In this document: piece by piece, positions 7,114 through 24,586 of the stretch
Position numbering within the stretch: position 1 is the first letter of the stretch
Layout of the letters: each line of letters begins with the position of its first letter
NCBI GenBank assembly: GCA_028874175.1
Contig: JAPPLN010000117.1
Coordinates: forward strand, 3,938 to 67,937
Reading direction: 5' to 3'
DNA from: Chloroflexota bacterium
GTDB taxonomy: Bacteria; Chloroflexota; UBA11872
DNA length: 64,000 nucleotides
Position numbers and translations under genes: made by a program
Notes under the pieces: generated by a model
Told to the model about the DNA's origin: nothing
The model's input: the letters and a program-made list of their open reading frames with translations, nothing else
Databases searched by the model: none

Positions 7114-8424
7114 TCAGTGGTCGGCGGGGTCTACTGCCGCCTCGGCGTCGAGGGTCCAGAGTTCGCGGCCCCAGACCATGATGAAGAGCACGACGGCCAC
7201 GCTGAGACTACCGCCGAGGACCATGGCGGTGGGCATGCCGCGTGTCTCGGCCACGATGGAGATGGGCATCAGGCCCAGCGGCGTAAGGCCCCAGCCGAGC
7301 ATCCAGATGGACATGACGCGTCCGCGCAGGCGGTTGGGCGCGAGCAGTTGAATCATGGTCTGGTTGTTGGCCATGTACACGGCCGAGAAGAGACCGGCGA
7401 ACGCCATGACGATCCCGGCCGCCAGGGGTGAGCGGGTCAGCCCGAGCACGATGATCGCTACGCCGAAGGCGGCGGCGCTGAGCATGACGACCGGGCCCTT
7501 GCGGCGGCTGCCGGCATGGGCGACCACGGCCACCGACCCGATGACCGCCCCGATGCCCTGGGCGGCCAGCACCAGGCCCAACTCCTCCGATCCCGCGTTG
7601 AGGTCCTGCTTCACGAAGATGGGCAGGATCATGACCATGGGCATGCTGAAGAGGGAGGGCGACAGGCCCAGCAGCAGCAGCGCGGCCAGCGGGCGGGTGC
7701 TGAAGGCGAATTTGAACCCGTCGCGCAGCGCGACAAACGGCGATCCGCGGGTCCTGGGGTGCTGATCACCCCCGCGGACCGACAGGACGTTGACCATGCC
7801 CCACAGGTAGCCGCCGGTCTGCACGAAATAGGTGCCGGCGATGCCGATGACGCCGATCAGCCAGCCGGCCAGCGCGGGACCGACGATGCGGGAGGCGTTC
7901 ATGGTGGTGCTGGTGAGCGCGATGGCATTGCTGACGTGGCGGCGCGGCACCAGGTCGGACACCAGGGCGTTGCGGGACGGCACGCTGATGGCGAAGGAGG
8001 TGCCCGCCATGACGCTGGAGACCGCCAGGTGCCAGATCTCAATGCGGCCGGTCGCGACCAGCACGCCAATGGCGAGCCCGGCCGCGGTGAAGATCAGTTG
8101 GGAGGTAATGAGCAGCTTGGTGCGGCTGACGCGATCGGCCAGGACGCCGCCGAACGGCGACAGCACGAGCATGGGAATGGCGCGGACCATGGCCAGGGTT
8201 CCCAGGATGAGCGGAGACTCGGTGATGACCGCGACCAGCCAGCCCTGGGCGACGTTCTGCATCCAGAAGGCCATCATGGTCCCCAGGTTGGCTCGCCAGA
8301 GCCGGACGAAGTCGCGATAGGCAAAGGCGGGCGCCAGGCGGTCGCGGTGTCGGGCCAGGCGCGAGCGCCGGCCGGAGGGGGCTTCGAGCGGCGAGGGCGG
8401 GGCCGCCGGGCTATCGCTGGTCAT
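7114..8424 (-). CDS. MFS transporter
   Basis: 436 aa with about 12 TM segments and MFS-like loop motifs. Confidence 0.85.
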   Translation of the reverse strand: MTSDSPAAPPSPLEAPSGRRSRLARHRDRLAPAFAYRDFVRLWRANLGTMMAFWMQNVAQGWLVAVITESPLILGTLAMVRAIPMLVLSPFGGVLADRVSRTKLLITSQLIFTAAGLAIGVLVATGRIEIWHLAVSSVMAGTSFAISVPSRNALVSDLVPRRHVSNAIALTSTTMNASRIVGPALAGWLIGVIGIAGTYFVQTGGYLWGMVNVLSVRGGDQHPRTRGSPFVALRDGFKFAFSTRPLAALLLLGLSPSLFSMPMVMILPIFVKQDLNAGSEELGLVLAAQGIGAVIGSVAVVAHAGSRRKGPVVMLSAAAFGVAIIVLGLTRSPLAAGIVMAFAGLFSAVYMANNQTMIQLLAPNRLRGRVMSIWMLGWGLTPLGLMPISIVAETRGMPTAMVLGGSLSVAVVLFIMVWGRELWTLDAEAAVDPADH

Positions 8425-20364: not shown

Positions 20365-20991
20365 TCAGGCGAAGAGTGAGAGTTGCTGCGTGTCAGGCGG
20401 TGGCGGCGGGTCGGGTTCGACCTCGGTGGCGTCGGCCAGCAGCTTGGGAATCATCTGGAAATCCTGCGACAGGATGTCGCGCAACCGTAGTTGCCGCAGC
20501 GCCGCCGCCGGATGGTAGACGGGGAGGTACACACGGCCGTGCAGCCGCCGCGCCACGCCGCGGGCCCGCGAAATGCGCGCCTCAGGGAAGAAGGCGTTGA
20601 GCGCGTGGCGACCCAGCAGTACGACCAGGTCGGGGCTGATCAGCTCGAGTTGCTGGTCCAAGTAGGGCCGGCAGGCCTCCGCCTCGTCCGGCAGTGGATC
20701 CCGATTGTTGGGCGGCCGGCATTTCAAGACGTTGGCGATGAAGATGTCGGCCCGGGCCATGCCGATGCCCTGGATCAGTTCGTCCAGCATCTGCCCGGCC
20801 TGTCCCACGAACGGTCGGCCGAGCCGGTCCTCGTGGAAGCCGGGTCCCTCGCCGATGAAGACGACGCGCGCCGTTGGCGAACCCTCGCCGGGGACCGCGT
20901 TGTTTCGGCCGCGGTGCAAGCCGCACCGCTCACAGGCTCGAACGACCGACGCAAGACTCGCGAGATCCGGGAAAGTCGGAAGGCCGATCAC
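20365..20991 (-). CDS. Uracil-DNA glycosylase, family 4
   Basis: CERCGL…, GEGPG, and C-terminal YHPAAALR motifs typical of family-4 UDG. Confidence 0.85.
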   Translation of the reverse strand: MIGLPTFPDLASLASVVRACERCGLHRGRNNAVPGEGSPTARVVFIGEGPGFHEDRLGRPFVGQAGQMLDELIQGIGMARADIFIANVLKCRPPNNRDPLPDEAEACRPYLDQQLELISPDLVVLLGRHALNAFFPEARISRARGVARRLHGRVYLPVYHPAAALRQLRLRDILSQDFQMIPKLLADATEVEPDPPPPPDTQQLSLFA

Positions 20992-20994
20992 GCG

Positions 20995-21912
20995 CTACGC
21001 ATGCACCGCGGCGGGCTGGAGGAAGGCGTCCAGTTCGTAGAGGTCGAGCACCGACTTGAGGTCTTCCTGCATAGCCGCCGGGAACTCGATTAGCGGCGAG
21101 CGTGGGACACCCACTGAAAAACCGCTCAGATTCACGGCCGCCTTGACGGCGATGGGGTTGGGCCAACCGGCGGGGAACAGCGCGCGAGCGATCGGCAACA
21201 GGTGCAGATGCTTCTTGCGTGCCGTCTCGAGGTCGCCTTCCACGAAGGCGTCAATCATGTCGCGGGTTTCGCCGCTCACGACATGCGACTGGACGCTCAC
21301 GACGCCCACACCGCCCAGGGCCATGAGCAGGTAGGTGTCGCTGTCGTTGCCGCTGTAAATGTCGAACCCGTCTTCGGCCGTGCGGGCGATCTCGGCGATC
21401 TGGTCGAAGTCCCCGCTGGCCTCCTTGACGGCCACGATGTTGTCCACGGCGCTCAGGCGCGCCACGGTGTCGGCGGTCATGTTGAGGCTGGTGCGGGCGG
21501 GCACGTTGTAGAGCATGTTGGGCAGGGGCGTGGCCTCGGCAATGGTTTCGAAGTGGAGGACCAACCCGTCCTGCGGCGGCTTGTTGTAGTACGGCGTGAC
21601 CTGCAGGAGGCCGTGGACGCCGATCTCGGCGGCTTCGCGCGACAGGTGCACGCTTTCGGCGGTGTTGTAGCCGCCGGTGCCCGCGATCACCAGGGCGCGG
21701 TCACCCACGGCCGACAGCGCTTCGCGGTAGAGATTGAAGCGTTCGTCGTCACTGAGCACCGGCGACTCGCCGGTGGTGCCGGTGACGACCACCGCGTCGT
21801 TGCCCGCGTCGACCAGCCCGGAGACAAGGCGTCCGAACGTGTCGTAGTCCACCGATCCGTCGTCGGCGAACGGAGTAATCACCGCGGTGATGAGCCGGCC
21901 AAAGGTCAACAT
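20995..21912 (-). CDS. dapA: 4-hydroxy-tetrahydrodipicolinate synthase
   Basis: ITAVITPF…VVTGTTGESPVLS…NVPARTSLNM, a canonical DapA. Confidence 0.9.
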   Translation of the reverse strand: MLTFGRLITAVITPFADDGSVDYDTFGRLVSGLVDAGNDAVVVTGTTGESPVLSDDERFNLYREALSAVGDRALVIAGTGGYNTAESVHLSREAAEIGVHGLLQVTPYYNKPPQDGLVLHFETIAEATPLPNMLYNVPARTSLNMTADTVARLSAVDNIVAVKEASGDFDQIAEIARTAEDGFDIYSGNDSDTYLLMALGGVGVVSVQSHVVSGETRDMIDAFVEGDLETARKKHLHLLPIARALFPAGWPNPIAVKAAVNLSGFSVGVPRSPLIEFPAAMQEDLKSVLDLYELDAFLQPAAVHA

Positions 21913-22042
21913 GCGACAGCCTCCGCCCGCAGCCGTACGAGTGGCCGCGATACGCCGTGCTGTAAGGGTTGATTGTACCTAGCGGCCAGGACGGGACTTC
22001 CGCGTGCGGCTGGCCGCTATTGAATGGCTGCGATTAGCGCCG

Positions 22043-22537
22043 TCAGGCGGGAGCCGGCGCGCTCGCTGGCGCGGACGGTCGCGGATCATCGACCGCCGGG
22101 GAACCCGACTCGGCGAGGGCTGGCTGGCCTGACGGATCGCCCGCTGGCCGGGTGCGTTGCTCAATGCTCGACAAGGTGGCCAGCATGGCTTGCTGCGTGG
22201 CCTCCATGCGTGCGATGACCTGAACAAGCTCGTACTGACGCGCCTCTAGGGTGTTCATACGAGCCACCAGACGCTCCATTCGGGCTTCCAACTGGTCCAT
22301 GCGAGCGTTCAGTCGGTCCATGCGAGCGCTCAAGCGTTCAATGCGGTCACTGATACGGCCCATGCGGGCACTCAGTCGATCCATTCGGTCGCTGAGACGC
22401 CCGTCCATGGCGTCCATGCGGGCGCTTAGGCGGTTCTCAAGTCTCAGAATCAGGCCGACAACCGCGCCGGCGGTGGCTAGCCCGCCCACAACCAGCGTCG
22501 CGCCAACGCTCAGGATGCCGACCAACTCGGCGCTCAT
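22043..22537 (-). CDS. Membrane-anchored heptad-repeat coiled-coil protein (nine RLSARMD-type heptads) with a Pro/Ala/Ser-rich tail
   Basis: The start at 22537 gives MSAELVGILSVGATLVVGGLATAGAVVGLIL (one TM). It is followed by ENRLSARMDAMDGRLSDRMDRLSARMGRISDRIERLSARMDRLNARMDQLEARMERLVARMNTLEAR. Confidence 0.6.
   Translation of the reverse strand: MSAELVGILSVGATLVVGGLATAGAVVGLILRLENRLSARMDAMDGRLSDRMDRLSARMGRISDRIERLSARMDRLNARMDQLEARMERLVARMNTLEARQYELVQVIARMEATQQAMLATLSSIEQRTRPAGDPSGQPALAESGSPAVDDPRPSAPASAPAPA
22252..22447. repeat. Approximately 21-nt tandem DNA repeats (GTCCATGCGAGCGYTCA-like) encoding the heptad array
   Basis: The periodicity is visible in 22260..22440: gtccatgcgagcgttcagtcggtccatgcgagcgctcaagcgttcaatgcggtcactgatacggcccatgcgggcactcagtcgatccattcggtcgctgag. 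Confidence 0.6.
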
Positions 22538-22675
22538 GGCGAGTGGTCGTTGCTTCCGATGCGCGATTTGACAGGGCGACTGTAGCACGAGCGACTCTCG
22601 GACCACTCTGCGGGTAATGCCGATGCGGACGCGTCAATGTCACCAGCGGCACGCACCGCTGCGACGGTAACGGCT

Positions 22676-23500
22676 CTACCAGTTGACCCGGCGGCTGAAG
22701 TAGCGGTGCCAGCGGCGCCAGACGCCCTTGCCGTAGAACTGCTCTTCCTGGCGCTCGATGATGACGGCCTCGGTGGTAAGAATCTGCGAGGCCAGGCCGG
22801 CGGCGTTGTAGGGGCTGAGCGCCTTCAGGATGTCGGGGAAGGCGGAACGCCACAGCGAGCGGAACAGTAGGAGCCCCAGCGTTAGCAGGAAAAGCACGGG
22901 CACTGCGCTCGATTCGCGCAAGTACGGGGCCAGCGCCAGCAGCAGCGGAGCCAGCATGGCCACCCAGAGAAGGATTTCAAGCTGCGTGTTAATGCGCCGC
23001 GCCCGGCGGCGATGGGCAAAGGTGTAGGGCGCGCGCTGCCGCTCAAAGCGCGCCCGCTCCAGCAGGGCCAATCCCGCGCCCATCACGCCAAACACCGCGG
23101 ATATCACCAGGCCGGCGGCAATAATTACGCCGCCCGGCGTCCCGACCGGCGGGCCGTCGCGTTCCCGAGGAATCTGCTCCTCGGCCACCGCCCGGCTGCC
23201 CTTGCCCTCGGGGTCAATCAGCAACTCCACCACGCCGGAGGCGACGATCATGACGATGAAGATCGCCAGCGCCGCCAGCAGCACCCCCATACCCGCAAGA
23301 AACCCGGCTTTGAGGAGATCAAACGTCGGCGTCCGGGCCGCGCGGATTTCCTCCAGGTAGATGTCCAGCTCTTCCTGCGAGGCCTCGGGCGACATGCCGG
23401 CCCGCACCAGCGCCTGCTGGGCCTGGCGGTAGTCGTCACGACGGTCCGCCGGACGCTTGACCGCGCGCCACCACGACTGAATCGAGTACAGCACACCCAT
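22676..23500 (-). CDS. Hypothetical polytopic membrane protein
   Basis: 274 aa with four or more hydrophobic helices. It lies between asd and the coiled-coil gene on the same strand. Confidence 0.5.
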   Translation of the reverse strand: MGVLYSIQSWWRAVKRPADRRDDYRQAQQALVRAGMSPEASQEELDIYLEEIRAARTPTFDLLKAGFLAGMGVLLAALAIFIVMIVASGVVELLIDPEGKGSRAVAEEQIPRERDGPPVGTPGGVIIAAGLVISAVFGVMGAGLALLERARFERQRAPYTFAHRRRARRINTQLEILLWVAMLAPLLLALAPYLRESSAVPVLFLLTLGLLLFRSLWRSAFPDILKALSPYNAAGLASQILTTEAVIIERQEEQFYGKGVWRRWHRYFSRRVNW

Positions 23501-23566
23501 GACGCCATCCTAGCCGGGACGGCGTTGACCCTCAGCCAGTGACTGGCCACCAGGGAAGCCTGAGGC

Positions 23567-24586
23567 TCAGACGAGCCCCTGCTCGATCATCGACTCGGCG
23601 ATCTGAATCGAGTTGGTGGCCGCGCCCTTGCGCAGGTTGTCGGAGACGACCCAGAAGACCAAGCCGTTGGGGTGCGACATGTCCTGCCGAATCCGGCCGA
23701 CCCAGGTGGTGTCGTTGCCTTCGGCGGTCATGGGCATGGGGTAGACCTCGGCGGCCAGGTCGTCCACGATCTCAACGCCGGGGACGTCTTCCAGCAGCGA
23801 GCGGGCCAGGTCGGCGTCAATCGGATCGCTGAATTCGGCGTGAACGGCAGCCGAGTGCGCTCGGAATACCGGCACGCGCACACAGGTCGCGGACACGGCC
23901 AACTCGGGAATGTGCATGATCTTGCGCGTCTCCGCCGAGACCTTCCATTCCTCCTTGGAGTAGCCGTCGTCACGCGGATCGTCGATGGAGGGAATCAGGT
24001 TGGACGCGATCGGGTGCGGGAACACGTCCGGCTCCAACTCGGCGCCGTTGGACATGGCGGCGCTCTGCTCGGCCAGTTCGCCCATGGCGCTTCCGCCCGC
24101 GCCGGAGACCGACTGGTAGGTGTCGGCAATCACGCGCCGCACGGGGCTGTGCTCGTGCAGCGGCGCCAGGACCTGGACGATTGGCGTAGTGGAACAGTTG
24201 GGGATCGCCACGATGCCCTTGTGCTCCTTCAGGTCTTCGGCGTTCACCTCGGGAACTACGAGCGGCACATCGTCGTCGTAGCGGAAGGCGGAACTGTCGT
24301 CGATGGCGATGACGCCGGCAGCGGCGACCCGCGGCGCCACGGCCCGGCTGATCGAGCCAGACGCGGAGATCAGGACAAAGTTCAGGCCCGAGAAGTCGCT
24401 GTCGTCGTCCAGAACCATCACGGTGTGGGACTCGCCGTTAAATTCGATCTGCTTGCCGCGACTGCGCTCCGAGGCCCACAGGCGCAACTCACCAACCGGG
24501 AAGTTGCGCTCCTCCATCACGCTCAGGAACTCGCGGCCCACGGCGCCGGTGGCGCCAACAACCCCGATACCAAAACTGCGGCTCAT
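23567..24586 (-). CDS. asd: Aspartate-semialdehyde dehydrogenase
   Basis: GIGVVGATGAVG N-terminus and the active-site region NCSTTPIVQVLAPLH. Confidence 0.9.
   Translation of the reverse strand: MSRSFGIGVVGATGAVGREFLSVMEERNFPVGELRLWASERSRGKQIEFNGESHTVMVLDDDSDFSGLNFVLISASGSISRAVAPRVAAAGVIAIDDSSAFRYDDDVPLVVPEVNAEDLKEHKGIVAIPNCSTTPIVQVLAPLHEHSPVRRVIADTYQSVSGAGGSAMGELAEQSAAMSNGAELEPDVFPHPIASNLIPSIDDPRDDGYSKEEWKVSAETRKIMHIPELAVSATCVRVPVFRAHSAAVHAEFSDPIDADLARSLLEDVPGVEIVDDLAAEVYPMPMTAEGNDTTWVGRIRQDMSHPNGLVFWVVSDNLRKGAATNSIQIAESMIEQGLV

Follow-up and report, generated by a model that had tools for sequence, protein, structure and literature searches.

The stretch of DNA analyzed here (the window; 64,000 nt of contig JAPPLN010000117.1 from a Chloroflexota bacterium) carries on its minus strand an open reading frame (ORF) for a 164-amino-acid (aa) coiled-coil protein at positions 22043 to 22537, with the ATG at 22535 to 22537 and the stop codon TGA at 22043 to 22045. 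In the order of transcription, it is preceded by the genes for polynucleotide phosphorylase (pnp), dapB, asd, and a 274-aa membrane protein and followed by dapA, a uracil-DNA glycosylase (UDG) family gene, the gene for RNase J (rnj), and ftsK. We are highly confident that its product is a real, lineage-restricted small bitopic membrane protein in which the membrane segment is followed by an uninterrupted helix of ~100 residues, and, judged by its sequence, the gene is a clade-specific accessory member of an unnamed family of more than 1,000 small proteins that begin with M[ST][AP]ELI[GA]IL.VG. The original prediction had described a 165-aa protein encoded on the strand of the housekeeping genes; the strand is indeed that of asd, the 274-aa protein gene, and dapA, but the product has 164 aa.

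Evidence for a protein-coding gene

In a search of 5.8 billion protein clusters, ~65 orthologous clusters were found, all of them from Chloroflexota metagenome-assembled genomes (MAGs) or unnamed metagenome contigs, and a scan with one genome per species revealed 17 species-level genomes with a coiled-coil gene at the same place. An exact look-up of the window protein returned no record. In both non-repeat parts of the gene, the ratio of nonsynonymous to synonymous substitution rates (dN/dS) is ~0.15 (N-terminal 31 codons, dN 0.030 and dS 0.193; conserved C-terminal coil segment, dN 0.146 and dS 0.95), and the insertions and deletions among aligned orthologues are in-frame changes of whole residues. 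On this pattern of conservation, the ORF is a real gene. The original prediction had allowed for a reading-frame error that produces a spurious ORF, and the genome G+C content of 65.6%, a 106-aa antisense ORF on the plus strand (22251 to 22571) that overlaps the gene, and the lack of a canonical Shine-Dalgarno sequence close to the ATG could be taken to point to an artifact of high G+C content or of the frame. However, besides the substitution pattern and the in-frame indels, the protein motifs at both termini are conserved with synonymous variation in paralogues, and the gene was called independently in dozens of assemblies. A spurious ORF can be dismissed for all practical purposes, and the antisense ORF is a mirror ORF of the kind that G+C-rich repeats usually produce.

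An alternative GTG-started frame begins at 22606 and would give 187 aa. Since the upstream frame is broken in several relatives by a stop 10 to 14 codons before the ATG and all orthologues begin with MSAEL, the 164-aa product is the real one. Around this start, the stretch from −12 to +45 (22493 to 22549) hardly varies in nucleotide sequence among the 18 genomes; 14 of its 15 third codon positions are invariant, compared to 27% over codons 1 to 100 of dapA. Predicted RNA folding of the region from −38 to +60 did not differ from that of shuffled sequences (z, −0.59) and revealed no stable fold behind the 5′ conservation. The paralogues have the same N-terminal peptide encoded by different codons, and therefore, the peptide is what selection acts on.

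Predicted architecture of the protein

The protein starts with the four-residue tail MSAE (22526 to 22537), which has no Lys or Arg and one invariant Glu; M1, A3, E4, and L5 are all invariant in the orthologue alignment. A single long uncharged segment follows (residues 5 to 31, LVGILSVGATLVVGGLATAGAVVGLIL; 22445 to 22525), which is recognized by hydropathy and is helical in an AlphaFold2 model. The highest-scoring 19-residue Kyte-Doolittle window covers residues 13 to 31 (mean, 2.14), and the segment always comprises 27 uncharged residues in the orthologues, in agreement with the one transmembrane helix of the original prediction. Charge counts in 60 orthologues and 116 proteins of the wider family gave 0.00 Lys/Arg and 1.00 Asp/Glu for the N-tail and 3.4 to 3.8 Lys/Arg in the 15 residues past the uncharged stretch. 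An N-tail without Lys/Arg and the presence of Lys/Arg after the membrane segment argue, by the positive-inside rule, for an N-out/C-in topology, and hence, the coiled coil is probably cytoplasmic.

From residue 32 to residue 129, Leu, Ile, Met, Val, and Phe recur with a period of 3.5 residues (spectral power, 4.37; 5,000 shuffles averaged 0.21 and did not exceed 1.79). The heptad periodicity that had been called perfect is thus genuine (it was reached by 0 of 5,000 shuffles), but it is interrupted near the membrane by two 4-4 spacings, or stutters (L33-L37-M41 and M44-L48-M52), and regular heptads cover ~11.5 heptads rather than the entire helix. From residue 48 on, the register is unbroken (position d, LLILLLLLLMMI; position a, MMIMMMMQIQLT), with Met at a, Leu or Met at d, mostly Arg at g, mostly Ser or Glu (also Asp) at e, and mostly Ala at f. 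The regular a/d core and its flanking residues (Arg at g; Ser, Glu, or Asp at e) are compatible with parallel packing, from which we infer a coiled coil that is parallel and homo-oligomeric. In the AlphaFold2 model, computed from a 39-sequence alignment, residues 3 to 129 make up a single helix, and the predicted local distance difference test (pLDDT) score is >90 for residues ~30 to 125.

The part of the helix farthest from the membrane differs from the repeats. Residues 95 to 129 (NTLEARQYELVQVIARMEATQQAMLATLSSIEQRT; 22151 to 22255) form a conserved, nonrepeat coiled-coil segment in the alignment (helix pLDDT, 88 to 95) in which R100, Y102, Q106, R110, A113, Q115, and L122 are invariant among the orthologues. 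Because this segment is conserved and its polar core residues Q101, Q115, and Y102 are invariant, the distal end appears to be the specific part of the protein. It is followed by the Pro/Ala/Ser-rich tail that had already been noted in the original prediction (residues 130 to 164; 22046 to 22150), which contains 9 Pro, 9 Ala, and 5 Ser in 35 residues and a semiconserved D-D-P-R-x-S-A-P stretch. The tail is predicted to be disordered, with a pLDDT score of <50 for residues 137 to 162.

Repeat units and turnover of stalk length

The variable repeat tract comprises residues 32 to 94 (22256 to 22444); its membrane-proximal part contains the two stutters, and the remainder consists of regular heptads in which Met occupies a and Leu occupies d. 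The seven clearest in-frame 21-nt units (22256 to 22402, minus strand) were compared in a unit table and an identity matrix; they encode GRLSDRM, DRLSARM, GRISDRI, ERLSARM, DRLNARM, DQLEARM, and ERLVARM. The array is therefore a heptad array as claimed, but instead of nine near-perfect RLSARMD heptads it contains about seven clear units of the type [D/E/G]R[L/I]xxR[M/I] (residues 46 to 94) and about three degenerate ones. At the DNA level, Tandem Repeats Finder reported a 21-nt array at 22294 to 22388 (4.5 copies, 71% matches, score of 78) and a 42-nt version at 22314 to 22399 (77% matches, score of 102), in line with the visible 21-nt repeats of the original prediction. The 21-nt units of the window allele share only 10 to 17 of 21 bases (57 to 81% identity), and since they have diverged to this extent, the slippage that had been suggested is less plausible for this allele, which probably represents a comparatively stable array.

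The relatives present a different picture. Orthologues have lengths of 111 to 180 aa, and the tract from the membrane segment to an invariant R-Q-Y motif varies from 16 to 83 residues, so that the expected variation in repeat number was borne out. The 18 loci are 85 to 98% identical in DNA over 3 kb of downstream flank and, by this measure, belong to a genus-level clade; nevertheless, pairs whose 3-kb flanks are 97.5 to 97.9% identical differ by 25 to 43 aa (L005/L011, 171 versus 136 aa; L008/L015, 172 versus 132 aa; L009/L019, 154 versus 111 aa; L014/L018, 136 versus 111 aa). Among orthologue pairs with near-identical first and last 22 residues, the length differences peak at 7 and 14 aa, and 7 aa is the most common; when proteins with near-identical ends were compared, the differences formed clusters at 7, 11, and 14 residues. 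Furthermore, adjacent units with 100% identical DNA are present in two relatives (ATGGACCGCATGGACGCCCGC twice in L005 and ATGGACCGCACGGACGCCCGC twice in L007), which is the signature of a recent duplication. Such changes in repeat number would arise when 21-nt (and 33-nt) units mispair by strand slippage or recombine unequally. In terms of a contingency-type coding tandem repeat, in-frame units that vary in number among close relatives were found, but near-identical, slippage-prone DNA units were not found in the window allele, and identical neighbors occur only in the relatives.

The idea that membrane helix and conserved segment keep a constant heptad phase relative to each other was rejected: taken modulo 7, the distance from the start to R-Q-Y has the value 1 for 35 proteins and 4 for another 20, and the values 5, 2, and 6 form smaller classes. 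Since units of 11 and of 4 residues are gained and lost as well, there is no fixed helical phase. In-frame tandem repeats in a coiled coil whose copy number varies among close strains are also found in the streptococcal M proteins. M proteins are virulence factors that are secreted and anchored to the wall, and their repeat blocks are larger, whereas the window protein is anchored by an N-terminal membrane helix and its coil is predicted to be cytoplasmic.

A wider, unnamed protein family

The scan of species-level genomes also gave shorter proteins with the N terminus (M/V)SAELIGILSVG, encoded in the same Chloroflexota genomes and in MAGs of Bryobacterales, Binatia, Latescibacterota, and Thermodesulfobacteriota. 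A profile built from 19 such proteins retrieved more than 1,000 proteins of 68 to 165 aa. The M[ST][AP]ELI[GA]IL.VG-type start is present in 113 of 118 newly listed matches and leads into an uncharged stretch and then repeats, after which comes one of a small set of conserved C-terminal motifs. Alignment of the orthologues with the wider family by hhalign gave a probability of 99.3% and an E value of 1.6e-20. Indeed, the window protein has the N-terminal family motif (MSAELVGILSVG), the acidic four-residue tail, the uncharged segment, and, between its conserved ends, units of 7 or 11 residues in variable number, and it shares with the wider family the Arg-rich heptad/hendecad repeats and a conserved nonrepeat helix. 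It differs at the C terminus. Most members have 70 to 120 aa and end with LEQRMARLEGVLDGLREALF or RLSRLEGKMDFLEGYIVRRNE, and the LEG.LDGLREA-type motif of the family is missing from the window protein and its orthologues, which instead carry ARQYE..Q.V.R.EATQQAML. In the window protein, this motif is followed by a Pro/Ala/Ser tail of 35 residues, and the membrane segment, with 27 residues, is longer. Outside the orthologues, the ARQYE motif occurs only in paralogues from this clade (P0066-68, P0142, and P0195). When members of the wider family have near-identical ends, most of the length differences amount to 11, 7, or 4 residues; variable stalk length is therefore a trait of the family.

In genomes of the clade, several paralogues lie at further fixed sites. 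A second paralogue (77 to 95 aa, GTG start, VSAELIGILSVGATLLIGLGG...) is located between cysteine desulfurase and IscA/HesB-like genes, upstream of ftsY, in seven clade genomes (L022-L024, L032, and L036-L038, at 8001-8290), with lengths of 77, 88, and 95 aa. In a third type (L063:5001-5456 and L064:5001-5351; 109 to 165 aa), Phe replaces Met in the heptads, giving RFGQIDE units, and the D-A-R-Q-Y-E-M-A-Q motif is retained; it lies after an RHH/PemK toxin-antitoxin pair and a hydrolase gene. A further paralogue is found near ATPase and DUF433/DUF5615 genes, and one circular genome has it in addition to the syntenic copy. Source pipelines mislabel members of the wider family as "chromosome segregation ATPase," "SlyX," or "EnvC" through coiled-coil cross-matches. 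The family has no Pfam or NCBIfam model at present and merits one of its own, which would end these mislabels. MAG names of the SB06xx series that occur in the family are found among sponge-associated Entoporibacteria bins (PMC7883664).

The fast turnover of repeats between near-identical genomes and the presence of several length-variable paralogues per genome could also be explained by the opposite topology, i.e., an N-in/C-out coiled-coil fibril on the cell surface whose length is varied under phage or host selection, as in a contingency-type surface protein. Many MAG names of the family fit sponge-metagenome bin series (those outside the SB06xx series are presumably sponge derived as well), and the disordered Pro/Ala/Ser tail resembles the wall-spanning linkers of surface proteins. 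However, the N-tail without Lys/Arg but with an invariant Glu and the Lys/Arg cluster after the membrane segment, seen in 176 proteins, argue against such a fibril, a signal-peptide-like n-region or cleavage site is lacking, and the hydrophobic stretch is 27 residues long. Moreover, the repeats vary in length but hardly in sequence type and would provide low antigenic diversity. We therefore regard a surface fibril as unlikely.

Similarly improbable, in our judgment, is a broader version of a contingency system, in which a hitherto undescribed N-tail-out family across phyla (Chloroflexota, Bryobacterales, Binatia, Latescibacterota, Thermodesulfobacteriota, and Defluviicoccus MAGs) would use heptads and hendecads to vary the length of a cytoplasmic or surface stalk as a fast-evolving trait under selection, with the 45-nt conservation as an additional regulatory layer.

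Place between asd and dapA: operon or accessory insertion

The original prediction had placed the gene inside a conserved asd-dapA operon. Its position is conserved, but only within one genus-level clade, and, judged from genome comparison, this is not a core operon. In more distant sister genomes, the cluster pnp-dapB-asd-Fic-membrane protein-dapA-UDG-rnj-ftsK is kept, with a membrane protein that is 57 to 61% identical to the 274-aa protein, but nothing lies between the membrane protein gene and dapA. In two such outgroups (L046:3968-4948 and L048:3724-4881), a Fic-domain gene separates asd from the membrane protein gene, and dapA is not preceded by a coiled-coil gene. In the ingroup genome L016 (L016:4811-6749; JAKZUJ010000090.1), a two-gene insertion on the opposite strand lies between asd and the 274-aa protein gene; it encodes an AAA_21 ATPase and a DUF4276 protein, which match the PADLOC candidate defense system HEC-01 with E values of 1.5e-186 and 1.3e-77. 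Since the Fic gene and the HEC-01 pair are found there as well, the asd-dapA interval tolerates insertions, and location within a housekeeping cluster is no evidence for a housekeeping role. We conclude with high confidence that the coiled-coil gene was gained in one genus-level Chloroflexota clade, between the older membrane protein gene and the dapA promoter region.

The spacers point in the same direction. Those flanking the coiled-coil gene have 138 and 130 nt, whereas the surrounding housekeeping genes overlap or are 3 to 66 nt apart. In an alignment of 18 upstream regions, only TG.TA.AGT at −50 to −42 and the last ~33 nt before the ATG are conserved. The former (TGCTACAGT; 22579 to 22587) resembles a −10 box with an upstream TG, 42 to 50 nt before the ATG, and is a putative promoter. 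A second −10-like box (GGTACAAT; 21972 to 21979) lies ~60 nt before the ATG of dapA and is kept in 17 relatives and also in the outgroups L046 and L048; because it is present even where the coiled-coil gene is absent, dapA probably has its own promoter. After the stop codon of the coiled-coil gene, a perfect 10-bp G+C-rich inverted repeat (UAGCGGCCAG...CUGGCCGCUA; 21980 to 22019) without a U run is found, possibly a terminator-like hairpin (−29.2 kcal/mol; z, −1.6), which the terminator scan did not report. These features suggest that the gene was inserted as a transcription unit of its own ahead of the dapA promoter, and cotranscription with the asd-dapA genes looks unlikely.

One allele bears on essentiality. 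In L013 (L013:8001-8219; OZ240251.1, a complete 3.8-Mb chromosome), the codon for the invariant Gln101 is changed from CAG to TAG and the remaining frame is intact, so that the allele is either a recent pseudogene or encodes a truncated 72-aa product; a sequencing error is another option. The nonsense allele argues against an essential gene.

From the position in a core operon, the original prediction had deduced a scaffold of the cell envelope or of division rather than cargo. Such a protein, cotranscribed with asd-dapA and akin to FtsB/DivIC/FtsL, DivIVA, or ZapB, would fit the shared strand with dapB, asd, dapA, rnj, and ftsK and an order of genes that does not vary among 17 genomes. FtsB, FtsL, and DivIC are likewise built as small bitopic proteins with a leucine-zipper-like helix, and there is a weak match to ZapB (18 bits; cutoff, 31.5). 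Like these division proteins, which have ~100 aa, the window protein is a single-pass protein with a leucine-zipper-type helix straight after the membrane segment. FtsB, DivIC, and FtsL, however, are universal core proteins with N-in/C-out topology and basic N-tails, whereas the charge bias of the window protein is reversed and its gene is clade specific and dispensable in L013. Sister genomes keep the cluster without the gene, the interval accepts other insertions, one complete genome has the nonsense allele, stalk length is unconstrained (16 to 83 residues), the ~130-nt spacers have −10-like boxes of their own, and no model of a division family reaches its cutoff. The deduction does not hold up against these observations, and a core scaffold is decidedly unlikely: the gene is an accessory gene next to dapA, with no evidence that ties it to lysine biosynthesis or to the cell division machinery.

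Comparison with known families

None of the curated families gave a credible match. In Pfam, the window protein reached 29.6 bits with DUF3450 (cutoff, 32.6), 29.0 with DUF7310 (40), 25.7 with FlaC_arch (27.8), and 17 with RNase_Y_N (32). FliD_C (PF07195) was rejected in spite of 26.9 bits with a cutoff of 25.4: the match, the only Pfam score above a curated cutoff, covers only model positions 168 to 235 of 236, the coiled-coil end, in a protein of 164 aa, and is a match of coiled-coil composition. FliD_C is the C-terminal domain of the flagellar cap protein of 400 to 700 aa. All NCBIfam matches of the window protein were far below the cutoff, no FtsB, DivIC, or FtsL model was among the listed Pfam/NCBIfam matches, and PHROG and PADLOC gave only weak coiled-coil matches. 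A PDB sequence search with the family profile returned two GCN4-fusion constructs (E ~0.005), which are meaningless, and literature searches for the repeat peptides and for coiled-coil repeats of sponge Chloroflexi found nothing relevant.

The likeness to XhlA or DivIVA proposed in the original prediction was not confirmed. DivIVA, which is soluble and lacks a membrane helix, is not among the listed Pfam/NCBIfam matches, and the window protein has a 27-residue membrane segment. XhlA (PF10779) is outside the 25 best Pfam matches of the window protein and scores 16.7 to 26.1 bits in relatives (cutoff, 34.7). XhlA, a lysis-associated protein of prophage PBSX, is likewise a short coiled coil with one membrane helix, which in XhlA is C-terminal, but no holin or endolysin gene is near the window gene, whose neighbors are asd, the 274-aa protein gene, dapA, UDG, and RNase J. 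DUF2730 (PF10805), a family of small phage-associated proteins of which gp25 of phage Mu is presumably a member, has the same layout (an N-terminal membrane helix followed by a coiled coil, ~100 aa) and size class. The window protein has this layout, and weak alignments cover membrane helix and coil. DUF2730 also lies outside the 25 best matches of the window protein, with 16.2 to 17.4 bits in five relatives (cutoff, 24.9), and precomputed tables list faint to unmarked DUF2730 matches for some relatives. The window gene differs in having no viral relatives and no lysis-gene context.

These subthreshold matches over membrane helix and coil in relatives (DUF2730, 16 to 17 bits versus 24.9; XhlA, up to 26 versus 34.7), together with matches to PHROG families of unknown function, an Rz-like spanin at E ~1e-3, and one paralogue near toxin-antitoxin and ATPase genes, could suggest a domesticated lysis-type protein of a phage or mobile element (XhlA, DUF2730/Mu gp25-like, or i-spanin-like). 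However, no relative was found in 2.9 million viral contigs (two scans) or 50,697 phage genomes, phage genes are absent from the neighborhood, each paralogue occupies a stable chromosomal position, and apart from the partial FliD_C match every Pfam family stayed below its cutoff. We consider such an origin very unlikely.

In a plasmid collection, only four weak coiled-coil matches were obtained. The best was rejected as a relative: it is a 429-aa hypothetical protein of the Thermomicrobium roseum megaplasmid NC_011961.1 (L062:2650-3939) with about twelve near-perfect 14-residue ARMERVEAQIEALT repeats before a different, globular C-terminal domain. Its architecture is unrelated, and it represents another repeat coiled coil of the Arg-Met-Glu type from a related phylum. 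A closer parallel in design is offered by YhcB (DUF1043), EzrA, and the N-terminal region of RNase Y, in which an N-terminal anchor holds a cytoplasmic coiled coil, the same principle as predicted here. They have no significant sequence similarity to the window protein, and to our knowledge, none of them has a variable number of repeats.

Proposed mechanism

In sum, the explanation that fits best, and that we hold to be somewhat more probable than all others combined, is an accessory N-out/C-in protein in which a membrane-tethered coiled-coil stalk carries a conserved distal module. In our model, the gene would be transcribed from its own promoter, and the product would act as a membrane-bound tether or adaptor and keep its binding module and flexible tail at a distance of 2 to 12 nm from the membrane. 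The conserved distal segment and the tail would be the working end that binds a partner, and the repeats would be a tolerant spacer, weakly constrained in length, that sets the distance of the working end from the membrane. The tether function itself is a tentative assignment and is rather doubtful.

Several observations do not sit well with this model. The near-perfect conservation of the first 45 nt is not accounted for. A "tolerant spacer" cannot be told apart from selected variation in length, and Pro/Ala/Ser tails are also typical of extracytoplasmic linkers. Scans of positions 20900 to 23700 for intrinsic terminators and for generic sigma-70 promoters, which require a −35 box as well, returned nothing relevant. 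Furthermore, no conserved partner gene was seen around the paralogues or the members of the wider family, whose contexts differ.

Whatever the function, a large family of membrane-anchored coiled-coil proteins has become visible whose stalks differ in steps of 7 or 11 residues even when the genomes are nearly identical. Should stalk length have a phenotype, the family would be a natural experiment on the distance between membrane and binding module; if not, it is a clean case of neutral repeat turnover that is constrained only by coiled-coil periodicity. There is no evidence yet for a new mechanism, and the finding is moderately interesting for annotation and repeat evolution.

Neighboring features

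A scan of the whole window with Rfam at gathering thresholds, and of positions 21850 to 22750 at E values up to 1, gave no RNA family and no lysine riboswitch ahead of dapA. In the dapA leader (21913 to 21979, minus strand), GGTACAAT is followed by ~60 nt with a predicted hairpin that reaches the GGAGG ribosome-binding site; only one-sided changes (G-U type) and no compensatory pairs were found in this hairpin. The upstream neighbor of the coiled-coil gene (22676 to 23500, minus strand) encodes the 274-aa multipass membrane protein, which is described here as genomic context. It has no family match in Pfam or NCBIfam. Homologues stand at the same position in the outgroups without the coiled-coil gene, and the protein is confined to this Chloroflexota lineage, with a length of exactly 274 aa throughout the ingroup.

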